From IMG/VR virus record IMGVR_UViG_3300044835_000040, positions 32,001-96,000 of that record: 64,000 bases of DNA; one strand, 5' to 3'. This DNA comes from a virus. The translations under genes and the position numbers were made by a program. The notes beneath the pieces were generated by a model. That model was not told where the DNA came from, searched no databases, and saw only the letters and a list, made by a program, of their open reading frames with translations. Position 1 is the first letter of the stretch, and every line of letters begins with the position of its first letter. Positions 2,613 through 22,397 of this stretch are shown piece by piece.

Positions 2613-2648
2613 CAGTCCTTTCGGGGACCGGTGGCATCATGGGCCGCC

Positions 2649-6645: not shown

Positions 6646-9156
6646 ATGGCTCAGCCTGTCGCCGAAGAACAGACCGTAGCCGCCCAGCAGCTCGAAGCTG
6701 AACCTCCTCCGCAGTCGCACGTCGCGGCCGTTGCTGCTGCGGCTGCCGCCGCCGCGCTCGTGACCGGCGCGCCGTCGGCGCCGACTGCGCCGTCGAAAGC
6801 CGCGGTGCGCGCTGCGACGAAGACGCTGCTCGACGGTGTGGACGCGCTGTTCCGAGCGCGCCGTCACGGGTTCGCCACGTACATCACGACGACGGCGCAG
6901 CACCAGATGCCCGGCATCGGCGCGGACAGGGTGAGCATGTTGGCCGCGGAGGAGATGCGCAACGAGGCTGAATTCCAGCGCAAGCAGCGCCAGCGTCTCG
7001 CCGAGGAGCTGCCGCAGGCGCTGCTGATCGCCGACCCGGCCAAGCGCGCTGAAGCCGTCGCGAACATCCTCGAACGCGAGAAGCGCTACATCGGCCAGCG
7101 CGAACAGGCCGCGGCACAGCGGCTGGTCGCCGCGCTCGAAGACGACCTGCTGAAGGCTGCGTCGCCGCTCGGCGCGTACTGGAAGCTCTCGCCGCTCGTG
7201 CGTGAACACTGCCTGCGGTGCCTCGCGATGGCAGGGAAGTTCTGGCCGTGGGAGGTCCTTGAAGCGCATCGGATGCCTGTGCACCCGAACTGCCAGTGCT
7301 CGAAGCTGAGCTTGGACGAGGCGGTGAACCAGGGCCTGATGACGCAGGACCAGATCCCGGCGAAGGGCGACGCCATCGCGCTCGCGACGCGACTGATGAG
7401 CGAAGCGGGGAGGCTCGAAGAGGCGCTGACGCACGAGGAGCAGCACGAGCTGGTCTCCGGCATGGAGCTGCAGGTGGTGGAGGCGTCGCTGCGCGAGATC
7501 CTGCGGTGGGGGAAGGGCACCGAGCATGGCGGCGAGTTCAAGCCGAAGTCGGGCGGCAACCCCGGCGCGGCGGTGCAGAAGGCGGCGCACCAGCTGCGTT
7601 TCGAGACGGCGCCCGCGGCGAGCGGCCGCACGGTGAAGCTGAAGGGCGAGTCGCATTGGATCCCGAAGGGCGAGGACTGGCAGCACAAGATCGGCTCGAA
7701 CGAGTACAGCTCGCCGTGGGGGACGACGCGGATCTACCGCAACGGGCAGCTGCTCTCCCAGAGCCATCACGACCTGACGGGCACGACGCCGATCGCGACG
7801 AAGCCGCACGATGGCGGCCCGTCGTTCTTCCCGGAGCTGGGCAGTCACGGGTTCGTGGGGCCGTACGTGCCGCCGCCGGAGCCGAAGATCACGCCGCGCC
7901 CGGCGCCGAAGGGTCTGGGCAAGGTGGGCATCCCGGACTACTCGGGCCGCAAGCTGGAGATCGGCAAGAGCGCGGGCGGCTCGACGGGCGCCAAATGGGC
8001 GTTCGACAAGAAAGGCAACCGGTGGCTGGTCAAGACCTACAAAGGCAACCAGGACCGTGTGGCGAGCGAGCTGCTGGCGAACGCGATCTACCGGGACCTG
8101 GGCGCGAAGGTCGCTCCGGCGGGCACCTACTACGCGAAGCTGGACGGCAAGCCGATCGTCGCGCTCACGTACCCGACGCTGGAGGGCGAGATCCGCAAAA
8201 TCAACTCGCCGAGCCGGGACCTGGGCAAGCACTACATGGCGGACGCGCTCGTCGCCAACTGGGACTTCGTGGGGCTCGCCGACGACAACGTGCTGTGGGG
8301 GCCTGACGGCAAGCCCGCTCGGCTCGATCAGGGCGGCACGTTCCAGTTCCGTGCGCAGGGCGCGCCGAAGCCCTACGGCGGCGTCCCGACTGAGGCGTGG
8401 ACGATGTTGCAGCCGAAGGGCCAGGGCTTCGGCAAGGTCGACGTGAGCGAGTCGGAAATGCGCGGGCAGGCCGCCAAGATCGCGGAGACGCTGACGCCGA
8501 CGCGCATCAAGCAGCTCGTGATGGCCGCACCGTTCGCCGACACGAAGATGGCGGGTGAGGTCGAAGCGGCGCTGAGGGAACGCGTGCAGTGGATGCGCGA
8601 CTTCAGCACGGGCGACGTGTCGCTGCCGCAGCCGTTGACTGGCGGTGAGATCGGCAAGCAGCTGCACGAGCACCAGCGGAACCTGGGGGCGTCCCCGGAG
8701 CAGCACAACGCGCTCGCGCGCTACACGAGCGACGAGGCTCTGCAGCGCCGGATGCAGGAACGGCTCCGCGCTGGGGAGAAGCTGTCGCTGGTGCAGAACG
8801 AGATGCGCAAGGGCATCGACAATCTGCTCGGGCGCGCTGCGACGCCGGAAGACCTGACGGTGTACCGGACGATGGATCCAGGGCAGCTCGGGGACCTGAG
8901 CAAGCTGGAGGGCAAGATCGTCAAAGACAAGGGCTTCGGTGGCGCCACGTCCTCGCGCGCGGCGGCGTCCGCGGCGCCGGGGATGCTGCAGATCCATGTT
9001 CCCGCCGGGTCGCGAGTCCTTCACGTGCACAGCCTCGAAGGCGTCGACAAGACCGACCCGCACAGCGAGCTGATGTTGCCTCGCGGCTCGCGGATGCGGG
9101 TGAAGGAAGTCGAGCGCCGCGGCAGCAAAACGATCGTCCACACGGTGCTCGTCTGA
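6646..9156 (+). CDS. MuF-like head morphogenesis protein fused to HipA/PI3K-like kinase and VIP2-like ADP-ribosyltransferase
   Basis: MuF CLRC...PVHPNCQC; kinase GGSTGA, WLVKT, SELLAN, NWD...DNVL, RLDQGG; ART YT, VYR, KGFGGATS, SELMLPRG. Confidence 0.8.
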   Translation: MAQPVAEEQTVAAQQLEAEPPPQSHVAAVAAAAAAAALVTGAPSAPTAPSKAAVRAATKTLLDGVDALFRARRHGFATYITTTAQHQMPGIGADRVSMLAAEEMRNEAEFQRKQRQRLAEELPQALLIADPAKRAEAVANILEREKRYIGQREQAAAQRLVAALEDDLLKAASPLGAYWKLSPLVREHCLRCLAMAGKFWPWEVLEAHRMPVHPNCQCSKLSLDEAVNQGLMTQDQIPAKGDAIALATRLMSEAGRLEEALTHEEQHELVSGMELQVVEASLREILRWGKGTEHGGEFKPKSGGNPGAAVQKAAHQLRFETAPAASGRTVKLKGESHWIPKGEDWQHKIGSNEYSSPWGTTRIYRNGQLLSQSHHDLTGTTPIATKPHDGGPSFFPELGSHGFVGPYVPPPEPKITPRPAPKGLGKVGIPDYSGRKLEIGKSAGGSTGAKWAFDKKGNRWLVKTYKGNQDRVASELLANAIYRDLGAKVAPAGTYYAKLDGKPIVALTYPTLEGEIRKINSPSRDLGKHYMADALVANWDFVGLADDNVLWGPDGKPARLDQGGTFQFRAQGAPKPYGGVPTEAWTMLQPKGQGFGKVDVSESEMRGQAAKIAETLTPTRIKQLVMAAPFADTKMAGEVEAALRERVQWMRDFSTGDVSLPQPLTGGEIGKQLHEHQRNLGASPEQHNALARYTSDEALQRRMQERLRAGEKLSLVQNEMRKGIDNLLGRAATPEDLTVYRTMDPGQLGDLSKLEGKIVKDKGFGGATSSRAAASAAPGMLQIHVPAGSRVLHVHSLEGVDKTDPHSELMLPRGSRMRVKEVERRGSKTIVHTVLV

Positions 9157-10736
9157 TGGAATGGGACTTCCCGCTCCAGGTCGAATCTGACCGCGGCGGC
9201 GCCGGTCGCGACGACCCCGACAACCTGCTCGGCCCGGTCGCCACGGCGGTGCTCGACCCGGCGCCCGTCGTCGGCGAGATGCCGGAGGAGGAGCTGGCCG
9301 ACCCCGACTGGGGCGAAGCGGATCTGGATCTCCCGGAGGAGGCGGGGCCGCCGACACCGCGGCGCGTGCTGGAGGCGTTCGCCGAGTCGCTGCATCCTCG
9401 CGACCGGCTCGGAGAGTGGGCCGGGATCGGCTTCAAGGGCATCATCGACAAGCCCCTCGACGAGCCGCCGCTACCGCGCGGCCGTGTCAGCTCGGGGATG
9501 GTGCTCCGGGAGCCTGACGGCCGGACGTGGGTCTTCGAGCCGAAGGGTCACTTCGGCGGCTACGAGCACACGTTCCCGAAGGGGATGGTGGAGAAGGGCT
9601 ACTCGCCGCAGCAGAACGCGCACAAGGAGCTGTTCGAGGAGACCGGCCTGCGCGCGGAGATCACCGGCCACCTCGGCGACTACAAGGGCACGACCGGCGT
9701 CACGCGCTTCTACACGGCGACGCGTACCGGTGGCGAGCCGCTGCCGCCCGATCCGACGCCGTTCGTGGAGGGCAGCCGGGAGTCAGCAGCGGTGAAGCTC
9801 GTCACGCCGGAGGAGGCGCATGGCCTGCTGAACATGCCGCGCGACAAACGCGTGCTGAAGGACGCGCTGGCGGTGCAGGAGGGCACGTTCATGGAGGGCC
9901 TGCACCCGCGCGACCGCAATGGCAAATGGATGGACGCGGCGAGCAAAATCGCAGCGCACGGCAATCCCGCGGAGGTGGACACGCTGAGCGTCCACGCCCC
10001 CGGCGGGCAGCTCTCCCCGGAGCGCGAGGCGCTTCATCGGCAGATCATCCACGAGGCCATCGCCAACTCGGCTGAGCAGTCGCATCCCACGGCGTTGTTC
10101 ACCGCGGGCGGCGCTGCGTCGGGGAAGTCCTCACTGGTCAAGCAGCTGCACACGCCGATCGACAGCATCATGGTCAACCCGGATCTGATCAAGGAGAAAC
10201 TGCCGGAGTACCATCTGCTCCGCGAATCCGGGCACAAGGACATCGCCGCGCACGCGACGCACGAGGAGTCCAGCCACATCGCTGCGCAGATCGCCTCGAT
10301 CGCGATCAAGGGCCGCAGGAACGTGATCATCGACGGCGTGGGGGACAGCCAGTCGAGGAAGTTCGTCGGCAAGCTGCAGGCCGCGCACGATGCTGGGCAT
10401 CAGGTGACGGTCCGCTACGCCCACACGCCGGTCGACGCGGCGCTGGCGCGCGAGGACAGACGCCGCGAGCGCACCGGCCGCGCTGTCCCGCATGGCGTGC
10501 TCGAACATGCTCACCGCGAAGTCGCGCAGCGGTATCACGATGAGGTGCAGCATCTTCGCGGCGTCAAAGTCGAGATCTACGACACGAACGGGAAAGCCAA
10601 CTCGCAGGGCGACCGGCCCGCACCGAAGCTGATCGCCGAACACACGCCGGGTGGTGAGCGCGTCGTCAAGGACCGCGAGAAGTACGCTGAGTTCGTCGCG
10701 AAGCGACACCCGGCCGTCACGACCGCAGGCGAATGA
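9156..10736 (+). CDS. Nudix hydrolase plus zeta-toxin-like P-loop kinase fusion
   Basis: Nudix box GMVEKGYSPQQNAHKELFEETG; GGAASGKS Walker A, NPDLIKE, VIIDG, RxxRTGRxVP. Confidence 0.8.
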   Translation: MEWDFPLQVESDRGGAGRDDPDNLLGPVATAVLDPAPVVGEMPEEELADPDWGEADLDLPEEAGPPTPRRVLEAFAESLHPRDRLGEWAGIGFKGIIDKPLDEPPLPRGRVSSGMVLREPDGRTWVFEPKGHFGGYEHTFPKGMVEKGYSPQQNAHKELFEETGLRAEITGHLGDYKGTTGVTRFYTATRTGGEPLPPDPTPFVEGSRESAAVKLVTPEEAHGLLNMPRDKRVLKDALAVQEGTFMEGLHPRDRNGKWMDAASKIAAHGNPAEVDTLSVHAPGGQLSPEREALHRQIIHEAIANSAEQSHPTALFTAGGAASGKSSLVKQLHTPIDSIMVNPDLIKEKLPEYHLLRESGHKDIAAHATHEESSHIAAQIASIAIKGRRNVIIDGVGDSQSRKFVGKLQAAHDAGHQVTVRYAHTPVDAALAREDRRRERTGRAVPHGVLEHAHREVAQRYHDEVQHLRGVKVEIYDTNGKANSQGDRPAPKLIAEHTPGGERVVKDREKYAEFVAKRHPAVTTAGE

Positions 10737-13700
10737 GCGAGCTAGAGACCGTCATCCCGCACGACAGTGCGGACTACCTGGAGCGCAAGCCGATCCGGTA
10801 CAGCCGCAAGACGATCGTGCTCGACGACGGCTCGCAGTACGACCTGAACGCGCCGGGGCCGTTCGACCCGGCGACGACGCTCTACCAGACGCCGCTGGAT
10901 CCGGTCCTGGAGGCCGCGGTGTTCGAGACGGAGCTGCACCCGCGCTGGCCGAAAGGCTCCGGGCTCCGCTCGGGCGAGTTCATGCGCGTCGGCGAGCACT
11001 TCAAGAGCAGCGGCGTGGAGTGGGAGATCAGCCACATCGTCAAAGGCCACATCATCGCTCACCGGTACGCGACGCAGAAATCGGACGGGCCGCAGACGAA
11101 GACGTTCGAGGTGACGATGCATCCCGGCGAGGGGCACGCGCACGTCTCGGCGATTGAAGAGTTCGTGCAGGCGCCCGTGCCGAAGGGCAGCAAGTCTGGC
11201 GGCGGCACGGTGACGATCGTCAGCCCGTACGTCGACAGCAAGACGCACGACCCGTCGATCGCGGTCCCCTCCACGTCGAAGATCACGCCGGAGGAGTGGC
11301 AGCGGTTCGGGCGGCTGGATCAGCTTGTCTACGTCGAGCACCAGGAACGCTTCGGCGAGTACAAGGACTCGACGCAGACGCAGGCGCTCGTCGACGCGGC
11401 CTACCAGAAGTTCTCGAAGGCGGCTGCCGACATGGCGCGCAGCGCCTACCAGTCGCAGTACGGATCCTCCTCCGGGCACACGCTCTCGCTCGCGGATGGT
11501 CAGATCCACGGTGCGGCGCCGGAGCTGCGCGCTGAGGCGGTCGCGCTGCTCGGCGAGCACGCCGCGGCGGTGCAGTGGGATCTAATGAACCGCACGCACT
11601 CGCCGGACATCACGCTCTCGCACAAGTCCGGGCACGACAAGAGCTGGTGGCAGCAGAAAATCACCGACAAGCTGCCGGTGTTCTCGACGCTCTCGCAGGC
11701 GTGGGCGTACAAGAAGGGCGGCTTCGGCGGGCACGGCATGGTGACGCCGATGGCGATCCGGCATCTCGTGCTCTCGACGCAGAGCGCGAAGGCGTCCTCG
11801 TCGGCGTCCTCGTTCGCTGGGGAGAAAGAGGTCGCGACGCCGTACCGGTGGATCCCGGACGAGAGGTCGCTGCCGATCTCCGACGGCGATGGCTCGCAGG
11901 TCAAAGGGCTGAACTGGCTGGCTGGCGCGACGACGGTCCCGACGGGCGGCTCGGTCGCTGAAGCGCTCGTCGACTCGATCAAGAACGGGACGTATCTCGC
12001 GCCGGTCGCGCAGCCGCCGCAGATCACGATGGATGGCGCGAGCGGCAAGACATGGATCGATCCGCCGCCGGAGGCCGCCGACCCGAAGTTCGAGGGCGTC
12101 ACGCTGCCGACGGAGTATGGCGCGAAGATCCCGCCCGCGGACCTGCCGAAGGGCGTGCCGTGGAACAAGGTTGACGCTGCTGGCAACCCGGTCGCGCAGA
12201 CCGGTGAAGAGGCTGGCGCGCACGTCGGGCAGTACTTCATGGGGCTGGCTGGGACGCTCTACTGGATCGGCCCGGACCCCGGCGCTTCGGGCGGCTACCC
12301 GTACCACATCTTCAAGATCCAGAACGGCGAATTCACGTCGGAGAACTTCGGCTACAACGCCAACCAGCCGGGCTACTACACGAACAAGTCGTTCGACATC
12401 AGCAACTGGCTGGAGGTGCAGAACAAAGCGCCGGGCTTCGAGCCGTCGCTGTGGGGCGAGTCGCTGGACGCGAAGTTCCTGGAGACGTTCCAGCCGGGCG
12501 AGAAGTTCCTGCTGAACGGTACGGCGTGGGAGGTGATGCCGGGCGGCAACGGCGTGCAGGTCCCGGTGATGGATCTCAACTCGGGGCTGAAGGGCAAGAT
12601 CAACGGCACGTACAAGACGAGCTATCTCGTCCCGAAGGGCGAGGGCAGCAAGACGATCGATATGCCGTCGCCGGAGCACCAGAAGTTCCAGGAGGGCCAG
12701 TGGGTCAAGTCGGCGTTCGGTAAGGGGCTGGTCACGAAGGTCGAAGGCACCGAGGGCGTGGGGCAGCTCGTGACGGTCGAGCATGTTGGCGGTCCGTCGT
12801 CGATGAAGGCCGCGGAGTTCCCGGCGAAGGAGCTGTCGCTGTGGCCGCAGCAGGTGGGCGTGCCTGCGCTCGGGTCGACGTTCGAGCACGAGGGCAAGAA
12901 GGCGACCGTCACGAAGATCATGGCGTCCGGCAAGATCCAGGCGAACCTGAAACCGGGCAAGCTGCAGCTCTCCCCGCAGGACTTCGCTTCAGCGCACGGC
13001 CACCACGTCGTGCCGATCAGCTCGCTGCAGATCGAGCCGCAGAAGACGAAGCTGAAGGACATGGCGCCGGGGGACCTGTTCCACGGCTCTGCGGGCAACC
13101 AGACGATCCGGCCGTATCAGGTCGTCTACAAGGGCGAGGGCAGCAAAACGGTGTACGTGCAGAACCTCGACAACGGGCACGTCGAGGAGCTGTCGCGCAA
13201 CGTCAGCTACCGCCGTCTGACGCCGGTCGCTTCGGACTCCCAGATCCCGCACGATGATCAGCCGAAGGGCGCGCCGGTCAACCTGACCGGGCCGGGCGGT
13301 GTCGGTGCGGCGTGGGACCCCGCGAAGTTCGAGCCGGGGCCGTCGATCACCGCGCAGAACATGGCGGTCGGCGACTACTTCACGGGCACCTACAACGGCA
13401 TCGTCTACCAGAAGACCGAGGATACGCCGACGCACTCGAAGGTCGTCGTCGTCGACTCTGTGGGCACTGGCACCGAGGGCCAGCTACTCGAAATAGCGCA
13501 CGGCGGGACCCCGGCTCCGTTCGAGACGCTGGTGCCGAAGGCGCAGGGACCGCCGCCGGAGATCGCGTCGCCGAGCACGTTCGTGCCGGGCGACTACAAC
13601 TTCGGCCCGAAGGTGCACATCAAGGACATGCCGCTCGGCACGATCTTCCAGACCGAAGACGGCGAGCGGCACGTGATCTCGAAAGACGACGGTGGCGACA

Positions 13701-16354
13701 AGACGCTGCTCAGCCTCGACGACGGGCACGTCATCACAGTCGACAAGACGATGCTCGATGCCTCTCCGGAGGCAGTCCACACGACGCTCGTCCCGGACAC
13801 TCCGCAGCTGAGCACGCACAGCGATGGCTGGCAGACGGGGCAAACGCAAACGTCGAGCGTCGGTCATCTCGCGATCGGTGACCACTTCAAGTCCGCTTCG
13901 CCTGGGAACAACATCTTCGAGGTCACCGGGCCACCCGACGGGGAGGGCTTCGTCCCGGCGAAGCTGGTGGCGTCGTCGATGCTCAAACCGGTGATCGGGA
14001 AGGAGCTGCAGTTCCAGAAGGAGACGGTCGTGAGCACCGCTCACCCGATCCCCGGCAGCAAACCGGCGGCGCTGGAAGTCGAGGACCATTCGGTGCTCGC
14101 GGGGCCGCAGGCGACGCCGTTCGACCCGTCGAGCTACATCGAGAGCGACAAGATCAAAATCGGCGACATGGCGCCGGGCACGGTCTTCAAGACGGACTCG
14201 GTGAAGAAAGGGTCGCAGTACTACAAGCTCTCCGACGACGGCCAGCACACGACGAACCTACTGACGGGGAAGGTGTTCCCGGCGAAGCCGAAATGGCACG
14301 GCACGGTGATGGAGAAGCAGCGCACGCCGCACGTCGAGCACGAGTACACGCATCCGCCTAACTCGGCTGACCCGCCGGAAGACAGCGCGCCGCCGGAGTT
14401 CAAGTCGGTGCCGGGCACCATCGGCGCGCTGAGCAAGGGCGATACGTTCAAGGTGCCGGAGGGCTACTTCCAGGCGGGCAAGGAGTTCAAGGTCCACGAC
14501 ACCACGCCGCAGTGGCACCCGCCTGTGGGCCACCTGTCCGGCTACCACACGATTGAGGTGTCGAGCGCGGACGGCGTGTCGTCGATGGCGACGAACCTGA
14601 AGCTCGATCCGGCGCCGGAGGATCACGCGGACGGCACGGTGCTGAAGGACAAGGCGACGAACGTCACGCCGTACGCGCAGCTGAGCAAGGGCGACACGAC
14701 GACGGTCGAGGCGCTGCGCAAGGGCGACACGTTCTCGATCGCCACGTTGCCGGGGGTCTTCGAGGTCATCAAACCGGCGGGCAGGCCGAGCGACAACCTG
14801 GACGACACGACGAGCTACGCGGACGTGCAGGCGATCGAGGGCAGCGGCGCGCACATCGAAAACTTCTCCCTGCATCCGACGGGAGCGGTGCAGCTGCAGC
14901 AGAAGGCCGAGCACGTGATGCCGGTGTCGGTGCCGCAGACGTTGATCGACTCGCTGCCGGAGGCCGTCGAAAACGGCAAGCTGCAGGGGTTCAAGCAGGC
15001 GTCGGCCGGGGCGTACATCTTCACGCCGATCGAGAAGCTGCCCGCGGGCGCCATCGCCGAAGACGCGGCGGGCAAGAAGTGGCTCGTGAAGCAGCCGGGC
15101 GCGGTGCCGGTGCTGAGCAACGGCCTGTACAACTACCGCGTCCACGACCCGTCGATCAAACTGGCCGACACGGCGCAGGCGGCGTTCGGGCCGCAGGCGC
15201 CGTTCCAGGACTGGGCGGATCCGCTCGCGACCGAACCGGGCACGATGGAGCAGAAGGCCGCGAAGGCTGATCTCGTGCCGAACGCCGCGGAGATGCCGAT
15301 CGCGGGCCTGCACATCAAGGAGGGCGACTTCCTGCAGTGGAAAGGCAACGTCGCGAAGGTGCTGCCGCCGGACAACGCGAACGTGAAGGTCGAAGACGTG
15401 GTGACCGGCAAGCACTCCTACCTGTCGCAGTTGATCGTGCCGGAGAAGATCTCGCCGGGGCACACGGTCCCGGCGCCGGAGCCCGCGCCGCCGGAGCCGG
15501 AAGTGACCGCAGAGCTACCCGCTGCGCCAACGCAGTTCACGCACGCCGTCAAGGCTACGCAGTTGGCGGTAGGCGACAAGTTCACGCTCGCACCCGGTAG
15601 CGGGCACGTCTACACGGCTGGGATGGTCGGCTCAGAGATGGCGAAATACAAGGGCGACCACGGCGAGTGGCATAGCGCGATGGGCACGGTCTACACGCAG
15701 CCGGAGGCGGCTGCCGCGACAGCACCGGCCGCCGAGCCGCCGAAGGCCGCTGTAGATCCTGCCGAGCCACAGCCGGTACACACGGTCGAGGACATGGCGC
15801 CGCACCAGGAGGTGCCGCAGATCAGCGGCACGCAGATCCCGGATGCGCTGGCGCCGTTTGGGTCGCCGAAGGGCGCTGGTGGCGTGTACTCCCACATCCC
15901 GCTGAAGGAGCTGCAGGTCGGCCAGATGTTCACCGACAAGTCGGGCGAGGACTTCCAGGTGATCGGCCACCAGGGCGACAAGACGATCTACCGCTCGATG
16001 ACGACGAGCGCGCAGTTCTCGGCGGCCAGCTCGGGCAAGGTCAAGCTCACGGCGCTGCCGCCGGAACCGGGGCCGCACCTGAAGCCGGTGATCGCGGACC
16101 TGACCGCGAAGTACGGGTCGCTGGAGAACGTGCCGAAGCTCTCGCTCGAAGACGCCGCGACGAGCACGTCGGGCACGGGCGGCAAGGCGTCCAACCCGCG
16201 GCTCGGGCATCTGAAGTACGGCCAGATGGCGATGGACGGCCAGGGCCACAAGGTCGTGTTCCTCGGCAGCTGGCTGAACCGTGCGCTGGTGCTCGACGTG
16301 GCGGGCCAGCCGAAGCTGGCGCCCGCGGGCACGCGCGTCAAACTCCTCGGCTGA
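10733..16354 (+). CDS. Giant (1873 aa) polyvalent-type protein with about 16 SH3/KOW-like repeats and possible ART-like N-terminal domain
   Basis: Recurring [LM]xxG[DT]xF units; HPR tag near N-terminus; STLS...GEKEV. Confidence 0.75.
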   Translation: MSELETVIPHDSADYLERKPIRYSRKTIVLDDGSQYDLNAPGPFDPATTLYQTPLDPVLEAAVFETELHPRWPKGSGLRSGEFMRVGEHFKSSGVEWEISHIVKGHIIAHRYATQKSDGPQTKTFEVTMHPGEGHAHVSAIEEFVQAPVPKGSKSGGGTVTIVSPYVDSKTHDPSIAVPSTSKITPEEWQRFGRLDQLVYVEHQERFGEYKDSTQTQALVDAAYQKFSKAAADMARSAYQSQYGSSSGHTLSLADGQIHGAAPELRAEAVALLGEHAAAVQWDLMNRTHSPDITLSHKSGHDKSWWQQKITDKLPVFSTLSQAWAYKKGGFGGHGMVTPMAIRHLVLSTQSAKASSSASSFAGEKEVATPYRWIPDERSLPISDGDGSQVKGLNWLAGATTVPTGGSVAEALVDSIKNGTYLAPVAQPPQITMDGASGKTWIDPPPEAADPKFEGVTLPTEYGAKIPPADLPKGVPWNKVDAAGNPVAQTGEEAGAHVGQYFMGLAGTLYWIGPDPGASGGYPYHIFKIQNGEFTSENFGYNANQPGYYTNKSFDISNWLEVQNKAPGFEPSLWGESLDAKFLETFQPGEKFLLNGTAWEVMPGGNGVQVPVMDLNSGLKGKINGTYKTSYLVPKGEGSKTIDMPSPEHQKFQEGQWVKSAFGKGLVTKVEGTEGVGQLVTVEHVGGPSSMKAAEFPAKELSLWPQQVGVPALGSTFEHEGKKATVTKIMASGKIQANLKPGKLQLSPQDFASAHGHHVVPISSLQIEPQKTKLKDMAPGDLFHGSAGNQTIRPYQVVYKGEGSKTVYVQNLDNGHVEELSRNVSYRRLTPVASDSQIPHDDQPKGAPVNLTGPGGVGAAWDPAKFEPGPSITAQNMAVGDYFTGTYNGIVYQKTEDTPTHSKVVVVDSVGTGTEGQLLEIAHGGTPAPFETLVPKAQGPPPEIASPSTFVPGDYNFGPKVHIKDMPLGTIFQTEDGERHVISKDDGGDKTLLSLDDGHVITVDKTMLDASPEAVHTTLVPDTPQLSTHSDGWQTGQTQTSSVGHLAIGDHFKSASPGNNIFEVTGPPDGEGFVPAKLVASSMLKPVIGKELQFQKETVVSTAHPIPGSKPAALEVEDHSVLAGPQATPFDPSSYIESDKIKIGDMAPGTVFKTDSVKKGSQYYKLSDDGQHTTNLLTGKVFPAKPKWHGTVMEKQRTPHVEHEYTHPPNSADPPEDSAPPEFKSVPGTIGALSKGDTFKVPEGYFQAGKEFKVHDTTPQWHPPVGHLSGYHTIEVSSADGVSSMATNLKLDPAPEDHADGTVLKDKATNVTPYAQLSKGDTTTVEALRKGDTFSIATLPGVFEVIKPAGRPSDNLDDTTSYADVQAIEGSGAHIENFSLHPTGAVQLQQKAEHVMPVSVPQTLIDSLPEAVENGKLQGFKQASAGAYIFTPIEKLPAGAIAEDAAGKKWLVKQPGAVPVLSNGLYNYRVHDPSIKLADTAQAAFGPQAPFQDWADPLATEPGTMEQKAAKADLVPNAAEMPIAGLHIKEGDFLQWKGNVAKVLPPDNANVKVEDVVTGKHSYLSQLIVPEKISPGHTVPAPEPAPPEPEVTAELPAAPTQFTHAVKATQLAVGDKFTLAPGSGHVYTAGMVGSEMAKYKGDHGEWHSAMGTVYTQPEAAAATAPAAEPPKAAVDPAEPQPVHTVEDMAPHQEVPQISGTQIPDALAPFGSPKGAGGVYSHIPLKELQVGQMFTDKSGEDFQVIGHQGDKTIYRSMTTSAQFSAASSGKVKLTALPPEPGPHLKPVIADLTAKYGSLENVPKLSLEDAATSTSGTGGKASNPRLGHLKYGQMAMDGQGHKVVFLGSWLNRALVLDVAGQPKLAPAGTRVKLLG

Positions 16355-16413
16355 CGCAGCGACCATCGGTCGCTATACTCTGTCTCGCAACCGATCAACT
16401 GGAGGTGCGAGAT
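16351..16413 (+). promoter_or_regulatory. Operator-containing promoter plus conserved leader and extended RBS
   Basis: CTGACG-17-TATACT; AGCGACC-ATC-GGTCGCT 16358-16374; GCAACCGAT 16387; GGAGGTGCGAGAT 16401. Confidence 0.75.
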
Positions 16414-16630
16414 GAAGGTAGACATGCTGATGCGGACAAAGGACCAGCCGATCCTCGTGGACGTGCAGGTGCGCGAGTCGAGCCACCGGCCGGGCAGGCT
16501 GAAGGTCTCGTTCGTGGTGCTCGACGCCGAGGGCGCCCCGCTCATAGCCAAGCGCAACAGCAAGCCGTCGACGGTGCCGCTGCCGCTGAACGACCGCGGC
16601 ATGGCTGACTTCAGGCTGGAGATGAACTAG
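16412..16630 (+). CDS. Hypothetical protein
   Basis: Strong RBS and promoter. Confidence 0.65.
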   Translation: MKVDMLMRTKDQPILVDVQVRESSHRPGRLKVSFVVLDAEGAPLIAKRNSKPSTVPLPLNDRGMADFRLEMN

Positions 16631-16885
16631 ATGCTGTTCGTCCTGGGCCTGATCCTGCTGCTGGTCGCGCTGGTCGCGTTCGCGATCGGGGGGGCGCTCA
16701 TCCTGAGCATCTTCGCGGTCGTGATGACGCTGGTGTCGGCGCTCGCGAAGCTGTTCGAGATCGCGTTCGACGGCATCGGTGCGAACCGCCGCTTCCGCCG
16801 CGTGCGCGAAGTGACCGCCCGCCCGCCGGAGCAGCTGGAGCGCTCGGCGCACGACCCGTCAGCTAGCCGTGCTTGGAGGCGATGA
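16631..16885 (+). CDS. Small membrane protein
   Basis: About 40-residue hydrophobic N-terminus. Confidence 0.6.
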   Translation: MLFVLGLILLLVALVAFAIGGALILSIFAVVMTLVSALAKLFEIAFDGIGANRRFRRVREVTARPPEQLERSAHDPSASRAWRR

Positions 16886-17286
16886 CGATGTGGTGCATGT
16901 ATCCCGGCAAAGGCTTCTACAGCGCGGTGGAGAGCAAGAAGGACCCGCAGGTTCTGGAAATCAGGGCGCGCGTGCGCGCAGACCTGAACCGGCTGAAGGC
17001 TGACCACATCCCCGATCTGCGGATCATCAAGGGCGGCGGCACCGACTACCAGCTCCGCGGCTTCACGACGCGGCCGAAGTGGGCGAAGGCCGTTGCGGCG
17101 ATGGCGATCGACATCGACTACACGAACTTCAAGGACGCCGTGACCGCCCGGCAGGGCCATCGGCGCCACGACGTGTACATGCGCGTGTGGAGTGCGCTGT
17201 GGGGGCTGGTCGAGCCGAAGCCGCGCAAGCGGCAGCAGCGCTTCACCTACGCCGACGAGGACGAGGCCGCACGCTGGGCGCTTTAG
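16882..17286 (+). CDS. Conserved-looking hypothetical protein
   Basis: GFYSAV...IRAR...GTDY...IDYTNFK pattern; GGAGG RBS. Confidence 0.65.
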   Translation: MTMWCMYPGKGFYSAVESKKDPQVLEIRARVRADLNRLKADHIPDLRIIKGGGTDYQLRGFTTRPKWAKAVAAMAIDIDYTNFKDAVTARQGHRRHDVYMRVWSALWGLVEPKPRKRQQRFTYADEDEAARWAL

Positions 17287-17318
17287 GGCGTCCGGTGTGT
17301 GGGTATCCTCCTGCTGAG

Positions 17319-17594
17319 ATGGCGATCACCACCGAGAGGGCTGCCGAGCTGCGCACCTTCCCCCTGAAAGACCGGTGGTCGCCCGAGGAGTCGCTGGCGC
17401 TGATCGAACACGTCGACGGCACGGACGTGATCGACGGGATCCCGCTGCCGACGTACGTGCAGACCGAGGCCGATCGCGTCCGGTGGGCGAACGCCGTCAG
17501 GGTCGCTTCGCAGATGAGCGAGGAACCCGTCTCCTCTCCGCTGGTGCAGCAGCTCGCGCGCACACTGTTCGAGGACCGGGACACCTACAGCTGA
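17319..17594 (+). CDS. Hypothetical protein
   Basis: ATG 9 nt after TATCCT -10-like hexamer; GC-rich third positions. Confidence 0.55.
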   Translation: MAITTERAAELRTFPLKDRWSPEESLALIEHVDGTDVIDGIPLPTYVQTEADRVRWANAVRVASQMSEEPVSSPLVQQLARTLFEDRDTYS

Positions 17595-17595
17595 G

Positions 17596-17901
17596 ATGGC
17601 TGTCGCGCTCCGGCCCGTCGCACCTCTGCCGCCACCGCGGGGGACCGTGCCAGAGCAGCTGAGGGTCGTGCTGGCGCGCTTGCGCGCGGACGGGCTGCTG
17701 TTCGAGCAGGCGTGGATCGAGTCGTGGGACCTGATCGCGTGGCCGCTCTCCCAGCGCGAAACGCTGGAATGGGAGAAGGCGCTCGAAGGCACGAAGGAGA
17801 CGTGGCGCGCGCGGTACGAACGCTGGGATCAGACGCCGGAGGAAAAGGCCGTCGCGGGGCTGGGCGCAGCGCTCGAAGCCGCGCTCGCCGACGCTGCCTG
17901 A
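17596..17901 (+). CDS. Hypothetical protein (Trp-rich)
   Basis: Adjacent to upstream stop, consistent codon bias. Confidence 0.55.
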   Translation: MAVALRPVAPLPPPRGTVPEQLRVVLARLRADGLLFEQAWIESWDLIAWPLSQRETLEWEKALEGTKETWRARYERWDQTPEEKAVAGLGAALEAALADAA

Positions 17902-17965
17902 GCGACCGATGGTCGCGCTCGTGTGATAGACTCTAGGGTGCAACCGATCCTGGAGGTACGACATG
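17901..17965 (+). promoter_or_regulatory. Operator plus extended -10 promoter and conserved leader
   Basis: AGCGACCGATGGTCGC 17901; TGaTAGACT 17924-17932; GCAACCGAT 17940; GGAGGTACGACATG. Confidence 0.7.
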
Positions 17966-18178
17966 AAGGGCAGAGCGAAGGCGTGCGACAAGTCCCTGGA
18001 GGCGCTGCTTCGGCAGGCTGAAGGCAAGGGCTGCGCGATCTCTGGCGGCGGGAGCCGTCACTTCAAGATCCTCGTGCCGGGCGCGGGTATCGTGATCACG
18101 CACTCCACCGGCTCGGACAAGCGGGCGCACAAGAACACCGTGGCGCGACTGAAGCGCATGGGCGTGACCGTCGCGTAG
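17963..18178 (+). CDS. HicA-like mRNA interferase (solitary)
   Basis: 71 aa; GGSRHFKI...IVITHSTGSDKRAHKN...LKRMG. Confidence 0.65.
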   Translation: MKGRAKACDKSLEALLRQAEGKGCAISGGGSRHFKILVPGAGIVITHSTGSDKRAHKNTVARLKRMGVTVA

Positions 18179-18181
18179 GGA

Positions 18182-18256
18182 TTGACAGACGCACGATCGG
18201 TGAGCTACCATCGGTCGCACTAAGCAACCGATTCACGAGGAAAGAAGGTGCGAGAT
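18182..18256 (+). promoter_or_regulatory. Sigma70-like promoter with partial operator and conserved leader
   Basis: TTGACA-18-TACCAT; ACCATCGGTCGC 18207; GCAACCGAT 18224; AGGTGCGAGAT 18246. Confidence 0.7.
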
Positions 18257-19424
18257 GAAGGCAGCAAAAGACATCGTGACGCTGGCGCAGGAGCTGAAAG
18301 ACCGCGCGGAGCGCAAGAAGGACCTGATCGTCGACGACAGGCAGATCACCGTCCTCACGACGCCGGGCGAGAAGGCGAACGAGACGGAGGTGCTGCTGCG
18401 CGAGCCCGCCGTCGGTGACGTGCTGGGGCAGACGATCGCGACGCTGGCGCCGCAGCGGATGTTCACGACGCAGCTCGGGCAGCACCTCGGCGTGCGCACG
18501 GACCTGCTCGACCGGCTCCGTGCGGAGCACCCGGTCCAGCACGATCAGCTCGTCAACGGGCTGCTCGACCGGATGCACATCGAGAAGAAGGACAAGCAGA
18601 AGCACATGGTCCGCACTTACGCCGACCCGGATGGCGGCGTCGGTGTCGCTCGCGCGCTGCTCGGCGAGGGCTACCGTCGGATCGACAACGAGGACATCGC
18701 CGAGGCCGCGCTGCCGGTGATCCTGAACGAGATCCCGACGGCTGTGGTCGACACGTGCGAGCTGACCGACACGAAGATGTACATCAAGGTGCTCGTGCCC
18801 GGAATGCAGATCAGCCTGAAGGAACTGGTCGAGCCGGGCCACCACAAGTTCCTCGACCCGAACAGCCCTGACTACGTGCAGGCGGGGTTCGTGCTGAAGA
18901 ACAGCGAGGTGGGCGGCGGTGCGCTCTCGATCGAGCACATGCTGTTCCGGCTGGTCTGCCTGAACGGCCTGATCCGCGGCAAGGCACTCTCGCGTCGTCA
19001 CGTCGGTCGCCGGAACGTCGAGGTGGCCGAGGACTACACGATCTACAGCACCGAGACCGTCGAAGCTGACGACAAGGCGCTGATGATGAAGGTCCAGGAC
19101 GCGGTGCGCCACACGGTCAACGAGGAGAAGTTCCGTGAGATCGCACAGCAGTTCGCGAGCACGGTGGCGACCGTCGAGATCGAGCAGCCGATCGAGCGGA
19201 TGCAGGTGCTGGCCCCGAAGATCGGCCTGACCCTCGGCGAGGGTCAGAGCGTCCTGGAGAAGCTGCTTGCGGGCGGCAACAAGACGCAGTTCGGGCTGAT
19301 CAACGCGATCACCGCCACGGCGCAGACGGTCGAGTCCTACGACCGCAGCGTCGAGCTGGAGGAGATCGGCGCGCAGGTGATGGACCTGAGTGGTGCCGAG
19401 TGGGGGGCGCTGGTCACCGCGTAG
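18255..19424 (+). CDS. DUF932-family protein
   Basis: RALLGEGYRRIDN and LKNSEVGGGA...FRLVCLNG signatures. Confidence 0.8.
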   Translation: MKAAKDIVTLAQELKDRAERKKDLIVDDRQITVLTTPGEKANETEVLLREPAVGDVLGQTIATLAPQRMFTTQLGQHLGVRTDLLDRLRAEHPVQHDQLVNGLLDRMHIEKKDKQKHMVRTYADPDGGVGVARALLGEGYRRIDNEDIAEAALPVILNEIPTAVVDTCELTDTKMYIKVLVPGMQISLKELVEPGHHKFLDPNSPDYVQAGFVLKNSEVGGGALSIEHMLFRLVCLNGLIRGKALSRRHVGRRNVEVAEDYTIYSTETVEADDKALMMKVQDAVRHTVNEEKFREIAQQFASTVATVEIEQPIERMQVLAPKIGLTLGEGQSVLEKLLAGGNKTQFGLINAITATAQTVESYDRSVELEEIGAQVMDLSGAEWGALVTA

Positions 19425-19466
19425 CGATGTGCCCTAGTATTCGGGGCGGAACACACGAGGGACCGG

Positions 19467-19486
19467 GGGGCGCTTACGAGCGCCCC
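19467..19486 (+). terminator. Hairpin, probable terminator ending the early island
   Basis: GGGGCGCT-TACG-AGCGCCCC; weak U tract. Confidence 0.5.
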
Positions 19487-19495
19487 TCAGTCTGT

Positions 19496-19515
19496 TAGGA
19501 GCGCGGCTTTACCAT
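19496..19515 (+). promoter_or_regulatory. Late-type promoter, leaderless start of 19522
   Basis: TAGG-agcgcggctt-TACCAT, GTG 6 nt downstream. Confidence 0.65.
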
Positions 19516-19521
19516 CGGGCT

Positions 19522-21372
19522 GTGCCGAGCACCATCCGTGCAGTCCGTCGCCAAGTCCGCGAGGCCGTCGCAAGCGGCAGTCCTCGTTCGGCGCGGACCC
19601 TGAAGCACGAACTGCCGGGCGGCGAAGTCGCCGAGCGGTACACGAGCCGCGACTACACGCACGTGACGACCAGCACCGGGCATTCCTCGGAGCCGCTGGC
19701 CGGTCACGGCAAACGGAGGGTCGTCGGCTGGCACACCTCACACGCGGCTGCGTCTCACCGTGGCCGTCAGATGGAGCGCGGCGGCTGGCTTGGCGTTCTC
19801 GTCGAGCCGGTCTGTCCGCCGCCGGGCGCGCCGCCAGCGCCGAAAGATCCTGAAGCGCCCGCGGGGACGACCCCGCCGACCGCGCCCGCCGCGGGACCCG
19901 TCACCGAGAACCAGGAGGTTGCCGTGCAGTCGACCAGTGAGATCGCAGCTGAGATCGCCTTGCGCGCGCTGGGCGGCGACGAGGCGTTCGAGCCGGTCGA
20001 GGAGGCCGGGTTCGAGGAGTCGCTTCATCCGCGGGACCGGACGGGCAAGTTCGGGATCAGCGGCCTGAAACCCGGCCACGTCGTGCAGTTCTCGCACAAG
20101 TCGCCGCGCGGGTTCCTGCAGGGCCGCATCACGGGCAAGGGCAAAGATCACGTCACGGTCAAGCTGACCGATCCAGGGACCAATCAGAACGAGATGCGCG
20201 TACACCACATGCGTCTCCGTTCGGTGCTCGTGCCCGGCGCTGGCACCGGCAAAGCGGGCACGCCGCAGGCCGACAAGTACATCCCGATCGCCGGGGTGCC
20301 GTACTCGGAACCGGGCCTGCCGAAGGGCGCGCCACGCGGCAGCACGATCGTGTCGAAGTCGACGAGCCCTGCTGCCGTCGCGGCTCGTGCGGCTGCCGCC
20401 CGGAAGGGCGCGAAACTGCCATCGCCCGCGCAGCGCAAGCAGAATGAGCTGGGCGCAATCATTGACGCGCACCAGCACAAAGGCCCCGGCGGCGACGCCG
20501 CTATGCCTTCGACGGTGCGCGATGCGCTGACGGGAATCAAGCCGGGGGAGACGAAGACCGTCGCCGGGGCGAAGGTCACGAAGCACCCGACGAAGGGGAC
20601 GTACTCGGTCGAGGGGGATCACAACCTCGCCTCGCCGTGGGTCGCGATGCAGTCGATCAAGGAACACCGTGTCGAACGGGCCGAGAAGGGCGCGGGCAAA
20701 GGACCGCTCCACGAGACGTACAGCTTCGGTGGCGTTCAGACGAAGCTCGGCGACATCATCGGGACGCTGCAGAAAGAAGGCCATTCGCAGCAGCACATCG
20801 ACCGTTACGTGCAGGGACTGAAAGCCGGGCGGCAGGTCAAAGAGGCGGTCGAGCAGGCCGTCGGCGACGTGCTGGAGGCTGGCTCGCTGGCGAAGGCGTC
20901 GTCGCCGGAGCCGTTCTCCACGTCGAAAACGTCGAACTGGGTCGCGCGGGCGGGCGGCCTGCCGCCGTACGTGCAGCACATCGCTCACGACCTGATGGAG
21001 GACAAGGATCACCCGCGCACGGAGAGCGAGGCGATCCGGCTGGCGCTCGGCATCGTCAAATCGCCGCCGAAGAACTGGAAAGCCGAAGCGCGCGCCGCTG
21101 CCAAGAAGGCGGTCGCTGAATGGGAGGCTAAAAAGGGCGCGTCGAAGGTGAAGGAGGCTGCCGGGGAGGAGATCACGGAGGCCGACTACGAGGTCGCCGC
21201 CGCGGTGCCGATCGAGGAGGCCGAAGACGCCAAGGCCAAGGCATTCTGCGTCGCGGATCGCGCCAAGGTGACGCCGACGGACAAGGGTCGCTGTCCGAAA
21301 TGCGGGCGCAAGCTCGGCAAGGCCGTCTCGGAGGCTGTGGTCGAGGCGGTGCGGGAGAGCATGTCGGCGTGA
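19522..21372 (+). CDS. Multi-segment head-associated protein (HPR tag, many V/I-x-E-A sites, C-terminal zinc ribbon)
   Basis: VEEAGFEESLHPRDRTGKF; NWVARAGGLPPYVQHIA domain; RCPKCG. Confidence 0.7.
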   Translation: MPSTIRAVRRQVREAVASGSPRSARTLKHELPGGEVAERYTSRDYTHVTTSTGHSSEPLAGHGKRRVVGWHTSHAAASHRGRQMERGGWLGVLVEPVCPPPGAPPAPKDPEAPAGTTPPTAPAAGPVTENQEVAVQSTSEIAAEIALRALGGDEAFEPVEEAGFEESLHPRDRTGKFGISGLKPGHVVQFSHKSPRGFLQGRITGKGKDHVTVKLTDPGTNQNEMRVHHMRLRSVLVPGAGTGKAGTPQADKYIPIAGVPYSEPGLPKGAPRGSTIVSKSTSPAAVAARAAAARKGAKLPSPAQRKQNELGAIIDAHQHKGPGGDAAMPSTVRDALTGIKPGETKTVAGAKVTKHPTKGTYSVEGDHNLASPWVAMQSIKEHRVERAEKGAGKGPLHETYSFGGVQTKLGDIIGTLQKEGHSQQHIDRYVQGLKAGRQVKEAVEQAVGDVLEAGSLAKASSPEPFSTSKTSNWVARAGGLPPYVQHIAHDLMEDKDHPRTESEAIRLALGIVKSPPKNWKAEARAAAKKAVAEWEAKKGASKVKEAAGEEITEADYEVAAAVPIEEAEDAKAKAFCVADRAKVTPTDKGRCPKCGRKLGKAVSEAVVEAVRESMSA

Positions 21373-22397
21373 GCGCGCGGGAGATCGCCGAGGCCGCGAC
21401 TCTGCGGATCCTGGAGCTGAGCGCGGACCAGATCCGCGCGAACGCTGTGCGGACGGTCGTCTCGGGCGCGCCGCCGCCGCAGCTGAAACAGCGGGGCCGG
21501 ACGGGCGCCGCGGCGTTTCAGCCGGGGAAGCACGCGCGTGGGCCGGGCGGCAAATTCGCGTTCGAGGGCGGCCGCGGTGCGCACGCGGCGAAGACCCCGA
21601 AGTCGCCGCAGGAAATCAAGCAGTTCCAGAAGGAATACGCGTTGCCGCAGACCGGCAAGATGGACGCCGCGACGCGGGCGACGGTCGCCTCCCCGCCGCC
21701 GCAGTCGGTGGGGCAGCTGGCGAAGTCCGAAGCGGCGAAGAAGGCGAAGGCGGAAGCCACGAAGCGCCAGGAATCGCGGGCGAAAACGAACGCCAAGCGC
21801 AAGGAAGAAGGCAAGCCGCCGGTCGGCACGAAAGCGACGGGCGCCAGCTCGCGCAGCGCCAGCGGCACCTCGACGGGCGGCACCGGCACGGGGTCGAGTC
21901 GCAGCACCTCTCGCTCGGGCAGCTCGCGTAGCTCGTCGTCGAGCGCGGCTGCCCGCACGGAAGCTGCGGCTGAAGCGGCCGAACGCAAGGGCGCGACCGC
22001 GCGGCACGCCATCGGCAAGGCGATGTCGGGGATCTCCTGGACGGGGAGGCTGAACGTCAACGAAAACCTGCAGGTAGGCAAGGGCATGGAAAAGGGCCAG
22101 CCGCCGTCACCGGCCGTCGGCCTGCTGCAAGCCAAGCTGGTCAACCTCGGCTTCAATGTCGGCTCGACGGGCGTGGACGGGAAGTTCGGTCCGGCGACGC
22201 AGATGGCGATCAAGATCCTGCAGCGCGAATACGGGATCAAGCCGACGGGTATCGTCGAATCGGCCACGCTGCAGCTGCTGGAAACGCTGACCGAACGCGC
22301 GCAGAAGTGGCAGAAGCACGGCATCATCGCCGCGGCGATCGTGCCCGGTGAGACCTTCGCGGCGCAGACGCGTCGTGTGCTCGCCGTGCTCAGCTGA
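21369..22397 (+). CDS. Peptidoglycan-binding-domain protein in the head module
   Basis: IKQFQKEYALPQTGKMD and LLQAKLVNLGF...VDGKFGPATQMAIKILQREYGIKPTGIV; FQPGKHARGPGGKF tag; GTGA overlap. Confidence 0.75.
   Translation: MSAREIAEAATLRILELSADQIRANAVRTVVSGAPPPQLKQRGRTGAAAFQPGKHARGPGGKFAFEGGRGAHAAKTPKSPQEIKQFQKEYALPQTGKMDAATRATVASPPPQSVGQLAKSEAAKKAKAEATKRQESRAKTNAKRKEEGKPPVGTKATGASSRSASGTSTGGTGTGSSRSTSRSGSSRSSSSSAAARTEAAAEAAERKGATARHAIGKAMSGISWTGRLNVNENLQVGKGMEKGQPPSPAVGLLQAKLVNLGFNVGSTGVDGKFGPATQMAIKILQREYGIKPTGIVESATLQLLETLTERAQKWQKHGIIAAAIVPGETFAAQTRRVLAVLS

Follow-up and report, generated by a model that had tools for sequence, protein, structure and literature searches.

How tailed phages other than T4 select the proteins that enter the capsid and the host is largely unexplained; injection is taken for granted in the case of polyvalent and MuF-fused effectors, for which a sorting signal has yet to be defined. 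The question is raised by the head module of an uncultured phage, IMG/VR virus record IMGVR_UViG_3300044835_000040 (129,070 bases, estimated to be 86% complete, GC 0.66-0.69), whose bases 32001-96000 form the 64,000-base stretch analysed here (the window, to which the coordinates below refer). Five late head genes, lying between the portal gene and those for the protease and the capsid protein, carry six copies of a short peptide, the tag, which in its strict form reads F-x-E-x-L-HPR-x(3-11)-G-[KE]-[FW]. We propose, with a probability of about 0.5 and on the evidence of sequence comparison, that capsid cargo follows a two-part grammar, namely a lineage-specific protease site and then a widespread address peptide on a tether. 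It seems likely from the motif statistics that the [VIL]-x-E-[AG] found ahead of the tags is the cutting site of the phage's own head protease; whether the peptide works as an address appears evenly balanced on present sequence data.

The tag copies and the genes that carry them

The principal genes of the head module are the following.

2631..4835, + strand: portal protein (phrog_10963 portal, E 9.9e-26; weak Phage_portal_2 match)
6646..9156, + strand: MuF-ART protein of 836 residues, with a MuF-like N-terminal domain, tag 1, a middle domain and a C3-like ADP-ribosyltransferase (ART)
9156..10736, + strand: Nudix-zeta protein, with an acidic leader, tag 2, NUDIX, tag 3 and a zeta-toxin-like kinase
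10733..16354, + strand: giant protein of 1873 residues, with a leader, tag 4 and a body, without Pfam or PHROG match
19522..21372, + strand: protein of 616 residues and no Pfam family, which includes tag 5 and a short beta-rich stretch and has CxxC...CxxC at its C-terminus
21300..22397, + strand: peptidoglycan-binding protein with the degenerate tag 6 (PG_binding_1 in two stretches, E 2.5e-20); its true start is likely the GTG at 21369
22442..23791, + strand: protein of 449 residues that joins a predicted prohead protease (about residues 1-180) to a C-terminal half that is helical and scaffold-like
24292..25380, + strand: major capsid protein (Phage_capsid_4, E 9.1e-31)

The six tag copies are located as follows.

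7474-7539, + strand: tag 1, site VVEA then SLREILRWGKGTEHGGEF; degenerate and long, without HPR
9366-9419, + strand: tag 2, site VLEA (residue 71) then FAESLHPRDRLGEW
9873-9929, + strand: tag 3, site VQEG (residue 240) then TFMEGLHPRDRNGKW, between NUDIX and zeta
10904-10981, + strand: tag 4, site VLEA (residue 58) then AVFETELHPRWPKGSGLRSGEF; a long tag, in the giant protein
19996-20052, + strand: tag 5, site VEEA (residue 159) then GFEESLHPRDRTGKF
21516-21557, + strand: tag 6, degenerate, FQPGKHARGPGGKF; without an adjacent cut site

All six copies reported in a preliminary description of this DNA were recovered at their positions, in frame and on the + strand, as was the V-x-E-[AG] directly before five of them (tags 1-5), where 0-3 residues separate it from the tag Phe. 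Four copies are strict, with His codons starting at 9393, 9903, 10937 and 20026, and two are degenerate, their cores reading LRWGKGTEHGGEF at 7504 (tag 1) and KHARGPGGKF at 21531 (tag 6). V-x-E-[AG] occurs 41 times in total in the approximately 27,000 residues of called open reading frames (ORFs), and the whole 129-kb record holds no additional in-frame tag copy.

When such GC-rich DNA is translated in six frames, matches to the bare pattern HPR.{2,12}G.[FW] are not uncommon (the 129 kb give 5, and 30 codon shuffles 2.9 on average), and the case thus rests on reading frame, clustering, shared flanks and relatives. Within 10.7 kb, four genes hold four of these five matches in real frames, and the same four also have F-x-E-x-L ahead of HPR; E..[LIVM]HPR was observed 3 times against 0.43 expected. 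Comparison with relatives shows both degenerate copies to be genuine. Tag 1 is kept in 6/6 homologues of the MuF-ART protein, down to 40% identity, with E279, A280, R287, G291, G295, G296 and F298 invariant. The relative G001, whose portal is 77% identical, carries counterparts of tag 6 (SLHPHGQHGRF; HFNSSLHPHGQHGRF) and of tag 4 (IEAAVWKSDLHPRWPKGTPERGGEF) in the orthologous proteins. Recent duplication or gene conversion of the tags was ruled out, since the copies differ at synonymous positions, indicating that conservation acts on the peptide and not on recently copied DNA.

The predicted prohead protease

The 22442-23791 gene had been called a protease in the preliminary description, and this is supported by its fold and its match to T4 gp21. 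Its product has neither a Pfam nor a PHROG match, and none of its 53 homologues carries a Pfam domain. An alignment of 32 homologues revealed a conserved N-terminal domain of about 190 residues in which H74, S143, E165 and D174 are invariant. The AlphaFold2 (AF2) model has a mean predicted local distance difference test score (pLDDT) of 76, mostly above 90 in the N-terminal domain, and combines a beta-rich N-terminal domain with a long helical C-terminal half. A Foldseek search of the model against the PDB gave nothing below E 0.09. When the model was compared by VIA-align with 48,161 PDB representatives, the top match was the T4 gp21 capsid assembly protease (5jbl_A; Z 10.9, root mean square deviation 3.3 A, 137/165 residues, model residues 3-178); this was the sole chain with Z of at least 8, and the later ones (Z 7.4 and below) match the helical half only. 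The modelling thus indicates a gp21-fold prohead protease fused to its own scaffold.

The putative cut-site motif

Motif counts in the C-terminal halves of the 32 protease homologues were compared with expected counts obtained by shuffling each sequence. [VIL]-x-E-[AG] was observed 218 times against about 45 expected, a 4.8-4.9-fold excess, with 4-10 sites in each of the 32 scaffold-like halves, and [VIL]-x-E-[ST] 88 times against 21. Observed/expected ratios for altered motifs were 0.42 for [VIL].D[AG], 0.53 for [VIL].Q[AG], 0.52 for [VIL].K[AG], 1.07 for [VIL].R[AG], 0.88 for [VIL].E[KR], 1.14 for [VIL].E[LIV], 0.65 for [VIL].EE, 0.43 for [AM].E[AG] and 0.66 for the motif in reversed order. 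Since a change at any position abolishes the excess, it can be read as the signature of a site with a hydrophobic P3, Glu at P1 and a small P1' residue, and not of helix composition.

Within the window the motif is in excess in just two proteins: the protease-scaffold protein has 13 sites where 2.3 are expected, and the 19522 protein has 9 where 1.8 are expected; in each case the observed count was reached in 0/500 shuffles. The capsid protein carries I-F-E-A at residues 19-22 and V-Q-E-T at about 35-38; a phi-x-E-[AS] (phi, hydrophobic) about 20 residues from its start is kept in 38/38 relatives, typically as R-L-L-E-A-Y-K-E-W, and most of these relatives have a second L-E-E-A slightly downstream. 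The effector proteins have their sites clustered at module junctions. Those of the MuF-ART protein are at 204, 223, 257 and 277, with none in residues 280-836; the Nudix-zeta protein has sites at 71 and 240, right ahead of its tags, and one more at 298 within the zeta region; and the giant protein has a site at 58 ahead of tag 4 and four others in 1,815 residues. The peptidoglycan-binding protein has I-A-E-A near its N-terminus.

The tag in other phages

The back-translated pattern E-x-L-HPR-x3-GKF found 97 stretches in IMG/VR, of which about seven are expected by chance on a rough estimate; 80 loci were taken, giving 77 distinct tags. Although the position was free in the pattern, W, F or Y stands two residues ahead of the Glu in 58/70 tags with enough flank. 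The tag core is invariant, GKF is followed by [ATS]-x-[KG]-x-G-G with Gly at +16 in 43/70 tags, and positions further upstream show no general conservation in the logo of these 70. The general tag is [WFY]-x-E-x-LHPRxxxGKF followed by a Gly-rich linker. Several contigs carry 2-6 copies.

Portal fusions (Portal_Mu, Phage_portal_3), MuF fusions and stand-alone proteins make up the 74 tag-bearing ORFs. Among the domains they encode are ADP-ribosyltransferase, zeta toxin, NUDIX, InPase, topoisomerase IB, poly(A) polymerase, SNF2 helicase and GNAT, as well as SAM lyase, PBECR3, 2H and PG_binding. In the window proteins and these 74 ORFs, no listed Pfam-A stretch overlaps the tag.

When 1.84 billion cluster representatives were searched with a profile built from 76 tags, 879 proteins matched at E<=1e-3, and 112 of them reached E<=1e-10. 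All of the best 150 are multi-tag proteins with 2-16 matched stretches each; a single tag scores too low to pass, so that 879 is a lower bound. In these 150 proteins a regular expression finds 483 tags, with a median of 265 residues from one to the next, which amounts to roughly one tag for each domain. Against cultured phages, tblastn of the 30-residue tag peptide gave only matches with E of at least 2. A scan of bacterial genome contigs was mostly noise, with an aromatic at -2 or -1 in only 14 of 80 loci, and no phylum-wide host range is therefore claimed from it. The recurrent reading DH-EILHPRPVAGKF, found in about 35 of these 80 loci, fits the DNA pattern and was rejected as a tag, lacking both aromatic and tether. 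As DRAG[LM]DH-EILHPRPVAGKF it occurs in many alpha- and betaproteobacterial genomes (L159, L161, L177 and about 30 other loci), where a conserved gene is probably being read in a different frame.

Of 24 ORFs with short upstream frames, about 11 have the tag natively at the N-terminus, their only possible start codon lying 4-14 residues before the Glu. Five paralogues of Isoptericola croceus q2 (L168, L169, L194, L195 and L216) begin M-S-T-F-T-E-D-L-HPR..GDGKF. Four of them lie within about 7 kb, and this cultured actinobacterium is a possible experimental system; Oerskovia merdavium Sa2CUA9 and Desulfovibrio cuneatus DSM 11391 are further candidate strains with the tag. The predicted cut after Glu in the window would leave A-F, G-T-F, A-A-V-F or A-G-F, with the aromatic at position 2-4, so that the predicted new N-termini have a geometry much like that of native N-terminal tags. 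The occurrence of the latter elsewhere fits the idea that cleavage would yield an N-terminus beginning with the tag.

Residues upstream of the tag follow the lineage

The preliminary description had asked whether the residues before the tag track the protease specificity of each phage. In the proteins compared here they follow the lineage: these residues are alike within proteins and different between them, and the tag itself is near-constant. Similarity was defined as at least three of four identical residues, shifts allowed, in the best 150 proteins, with the following frequencies.

Positions -8 to -1 before the aromatic: 31.4% within a protein (765 pairs), 4.4% between proteins (65,665 pairs)
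Positions -18 to -11: 4.4% within, 2.0% between
Positions -28 to -21: 2.9% within, 2.2% between
Positions -48 to -41: 4.7% within, 1.8% between

The upstream residues are V-P-[LIF]-[SE]-L-[ANS] in P0072 (where they also occur twice without a tag), x-x-F-[SA] in P0111, V-A-A-G-D-F in P0099, T-A-A in P0062 and N-L-A in P0061. As regards the motif of the window, phi-x-E-[AG] stands 0-5 residues before the aromatic in 42/483 tags, 22 of which belong to 8 proteins, and four of these 8 bear the MuF-like WPW.V signature of the window lineage. The other 142 proteins have it before 20/460 tags, the background expectation being about 2%. Among the lineage relatives P0067, P0068 and P0074, phi-x-E-[AG] is found at this distance in 10/12 tags; as to the remaining two, L-R-E-I precedes the one, and the other has L-Q-E-A at a place five residues farther upstream. 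In the loci retrieved, relatives with the same protease family have the prefix at 6/12 tags by a strict regular expression, and several more have I or V as the fourth residue.

Proposed mechanism

From the anatomy of the precursors, the protease fold, the motif statistics and the conservation we infer cleavage, packaging, and a binding function and partner of the tag, in the following manner. The gp21-fold protease would cut behind the Glu wherever [VIL]-x-E precedes a small residue, and would in this way degrade its own scaffold half and the 19522 protein, trim the N-terminus of the capsid protein, and sever the head-module precursors just before tags 1 to 5. These cuts would part the MuF-like domain from the ART module, remove the leaders and split NUDIX from the zeta kinase. 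Each released module would then carry the aromatic of [WFY]-x-E-x-L-HPR-x3-G-[KR]-[FW] 2-4 residues from its new N-terminus. A Gly/Ser-rich tether usually comes after the peptide in other phages, and only some window tags have one. The peptide may hold the cargo to a common receptor inside the procapsid, or it may guide the exit of the cargo with the DNA.

Weighing of the evidence

The preliminary description had suggested that the head protease cuts these precursors and that the tag then serves as a signal. The protease fold, the motif statistics, the tracking of lineage by upstream residues and the native N-terminal tags speak for this proposal; tag 6, with no adjacent site, does not conform to it and is the first of several points that weigh against the two-part grammar. 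The 32 protease homologues are related and their counts are not independent, so that the enrichment overstates the sample size. The G001 orthologue of the 19522 protein has no tag, the tag-bearing middle part being missing. The second-lineage test attempted with a viral-contig relative of the multi-tag protein P0072 was uninformative, as the relative has neither tags nor the upstream motif. A 102-kb contig (L057-L059) keeps a fixed spacing of its upstream [LMF]-[AG]-D, which makes these residues indistinguishable from a longer tag. Furthermore, the tags of a single protein resemble one another even where the tag is variable, and the upstream similarity could thus be due in part to concerted evolution of a longer unit. 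For the window lineage, site and tag lie a variable 0 to 5 residues apart, and the scaffold and the capsid protein provide independent ties to the motif.

Further points on the same side concern the address itself. Cargo fused to portal or MuF would require no address for capsid entry; a tag on such cargo fits a need to free it and is neutral regarding the address. The tag is conserved across phages with unrelated portals and capsid proteins, with no obvious common receptor. The low pLDDT at the junctions of the Nudix-zeta protein (see below) may be a mere effect of a shallow alignment, and the support for cleavage and packaging is computational throughout.

Three other explanations were considered. 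The tag may act during ejection or after injection instead of in packaging, either as an N-terminal leader threading the portal and tail channel or by docking to a conserved host factor such as a chaperone. Ejection had already been named as an alternative in the preliminary description, and such a role would agree with the position of the tag at a native or predicted new N-terminus and with its conservation across differing portal families (Portal_Mu, Phage_portal_3 and that of the window) and capsid proteins, which speaks for a partner other than a lineage-specific head protein. However, the tag is also present on the peptidoglycan-binding protein and on a giant protein free of enzyme domains, neither of which needs to act in the cytoplasm. 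We consider this role unlikely, and note that nothing in our data separates it from one in packaging.

Alternatively, the tag could merely determine where to cut, as an exosite, recognition or self-processing element at module junctions with no role after the cut. Its placement at the module boundaries of portal and MuF fusions, where cargo must be freed, is what such a determinant would show, and so is the presence of one tag per junction in multi-tag proteins (median spacing as given above). This explanation is rather improbable, since in many stand-alone genes the tag lies 4-13 residues after the only possible start codon, leaving nothing to cut, and since sites in the scaffold and the capsid protein function in the proposed scheme without a tag; moreover, the tag is near-constant across phages, whereas the preceding residues vary by lineage and in the window match the scaffold-enriched motif.

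Least probable is that there is neither processing nor address and that the peptide is an inter-domain joint, structural cap or mini-hairpin, with V-x-E-A as the end of the preceding helix, persisting because the module shuffling of polyvalent proteins occurs at such joints: cassettes do move between relatives (G001 lacks Nudix-zeta and has its leader on the giant protein), homologous NUDIX occurs inside the middle domain of P0058 and P0059, and both Nudix-zeta tags show a small R-to-W/F bridge in the AF2 model, but the synonymous differences between tag copies point to peptide-level conservation and not to a recombination footprint, helix ends fail to explain a position-specific 4.8-fold scaffold excess together with the conservation at the capsid-protein N-terminus, and the distance between site and tag is not constant.

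Cargo proteins and their domains

Among the domain labels of the preliminary description, ART, NUDIX, zeta toxin, PG_binding_1 and portal (by PHROG) were borne out, the protease by fold only, and a 'kinase' ahead of the ART was not: the latter had no Pfam or PDB profile match, and BLASTP against the ORF with a PI3/PI4-kinase hit gave nothing significant. The MuF-ART protein contains ADPrib_exo_Tox at residues 676-825 (E 2.3e-10), with PDB profile matches to ARTs only, and residues 1-665 have no Pfam match. MuF itself had no Pfam match at E<=1; hhalign against five MuF segments gave a weak match (E 0.013, probability 3.3), which pairs the W...C..C...HPNCxC core.

The Nudix-zeta protein has NUDIX at 110-232 and Zeta_toxin at 305-481, that is, two unrelated enzyme domains in one polypeptide. 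In its AF2 model the zeta domain is confident, and pLDDT is below 50 at residues 1-75 and 236-259, which comprise both junctions. Owing to the shallow alignment the model is poor in the NUDIX part as well, and low junction pLDDT is thus weak support for accessibility. The same isolated bridge from the Arg of HPR to the final Trp is present in both tags (R82-W88 and R252-W258), at low confidence, and hints at a mini-hairpin in the modelled tags.

Cargo modules are exchanged between relatives. In the region compared with the Nudix-zeta gene (loci L005 and L006, about 7225-12567), G001 has no Nudix-zeta ORF, and the acidic leader of the window's Nudix-zeta protein (VES..G.AGRDDPDNLLG) instead fronts the tag of its giant protein; the two-enzyme cassette was therefore apparently inserted or lost between leader and tag. 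The MuF-ART homologues P0058 and P0059 have a homologous NUDIX module within the MuF-ART middle domain, with no tag beside it. The MuF-zeta 'head morphogenesis' protein of cyanophage PSS2, the only cultured-phage relative of the zeta module, was inspected and carries no tag. The zeta homologues P0212, P0213, P0216, P0217 and P0220 are fused to PF14550, an XkdF-like S78 phage protease domain; judged by this architecture, the fusions appear to be a further tie between the zeta-like kinase and head maturation.

The giant protein showed no internal repeats in self-BLAST. It contains about ten loose hydrophobic-x-x-G-D-x-F motifs, which may be small beta-barrel units. The nine putative cut sites of the 19522 protein suggest that it may be a second scaffold-like or sacrificial core protein. 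Its C-terminal CxxC...CxxC is zinc-ribbon-like, with weak Pfam hints only.

Neighbouring genes and cultured relatives

Additional features of the head module are given below.

880-1275, upstream of the portal gene: small ORF with a weak DnaJ-type CXXCXGXG zinc-finger match (E 5.2e-5, below the Pfam cut-off)
Between the giant and the 19522 protein, + strand: small ORFs and a DUF932 protein (DUF932 / phrog_1362, at 18255-19424, within the head module)
Between the protease-scaffold and capsid genes, + strand: a small protein

A megablast search of cultured phages with 6646-16354 gave zero matches, and the cultured-phage relatives of the capsid protein have only about 25-28% identity.

Implications

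The tag is short and readily searchable, labels effector cargo and predicts where precursors are cut. If the two-part grammar is true, injected effectors, counter-defence enzymes among them, could be recognized in metagenomic phages by a sequence rule, and the specificity of a head protease could be read from the phage's own genome. The tag would also be a portable means of loading foreign proteins into phage heads, as the capsid targeting sequence (CTS) does for T4. The wider generalization, that a single portable N-terminal address peptide for capsid-borne proteins is common to tailed phages from several bacterial phyla and that each lineage adds its own head-protease site to it, is tentative, and we would give it somewhat less than even odds. 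On that view, placing an enzyme of any kind after 'site plus tag' would suffice for it to be released on its own, packaged and injected, amounting to a plug-and-play delivery grammar, and a universal receptor would be implied, with the portal, the DNA or the exit channel as candidates.

Comparison with known systems

Encapsulin cargo-loading peptides are short, conserved sequences on a flexible tether that mark unrelated enzymes for an HK97-fold shell; they are mostly C-terminal and bind the shell protein. The phage tag resembles them as a short conserved peptide on a tether (the Gly at +16 described above) attached to unrelated cargo, and differs from them in being N-terminal or internal.

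For polyvalent and MuF-fused effectors, packaging and later injection have been proposed (Iyer et al., 2017, PMC5512222; Jamet et al., 2017, PMC5576092). The likeness lies in multi-enzyme head-module proteins beside or fused to portal and MuF, and in common domains such as ART, zeta, NUDIX and InPase; as far as the main text of Iyer et al. describes the class, the 74 tag-bearing ORFs are phage-type polyvalent proteins (PMC5512222). In word searches the main texts of both papers gave no sign of the peptide, which the supplements of Iyer et al. may list, and no pairing with a lineage-specific cut site is described in them. A literature search by literal motif found no relevant description of the peptide. 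Polyvalent and MuF-fused effectors and T4-type processing with a CTS are known, and the tag peptide is, as far as these searches reach, undescribed and uncatalogued.

In the giant phages phiKZ, 201phi2-1 and SPN3US, head and ejection proteins are processed by a gp21-like protease at S/A-X-E (PMC9026906). They resemble the window phage in that cleavage behind a Glu in a minimal motif affects numerous head proteins and in that propeptides have redundant sites, and differ from it in that the relevant passages of that paper describe no shared post-cleavage peptide (PMC9026906). The window phage, of about 130-150 kb, differs further in having its protease fused to the scaffold.

The closest parallel is offered by T4, in which the CTS of IPI-III and Alt is removed by gp21. 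According to the relevant parts of the literature, gp21 cuts after Glu in L/I-X-E, a specificity that was recognized first at a Glu-Ala bond in the scaffold protein gp22 (PMC9026906); it breaks the scaffold proteins into pieces, removes short N-terminal peptides from Alt and the internal proteins, and takes 65 residues off the capsid protein (PMC9026906, PMC9958956). A gp21-fold protease, a hydrophobic-x-Glu site and a scaffold with many sites are shared with the window phage, and T4 cargo includes an injected ADP-ribosyltransferase, as ART is among the window cargo. The four leaders before the sites, inspected by eye, have no common motif, unlike T4 with its shared CTS. In T4 the address precedes the cut and is discarded, whereas in the window the peptide follows the putative cut and would stay on the cargo; in addition, the window tag is found far beyond one phage group.

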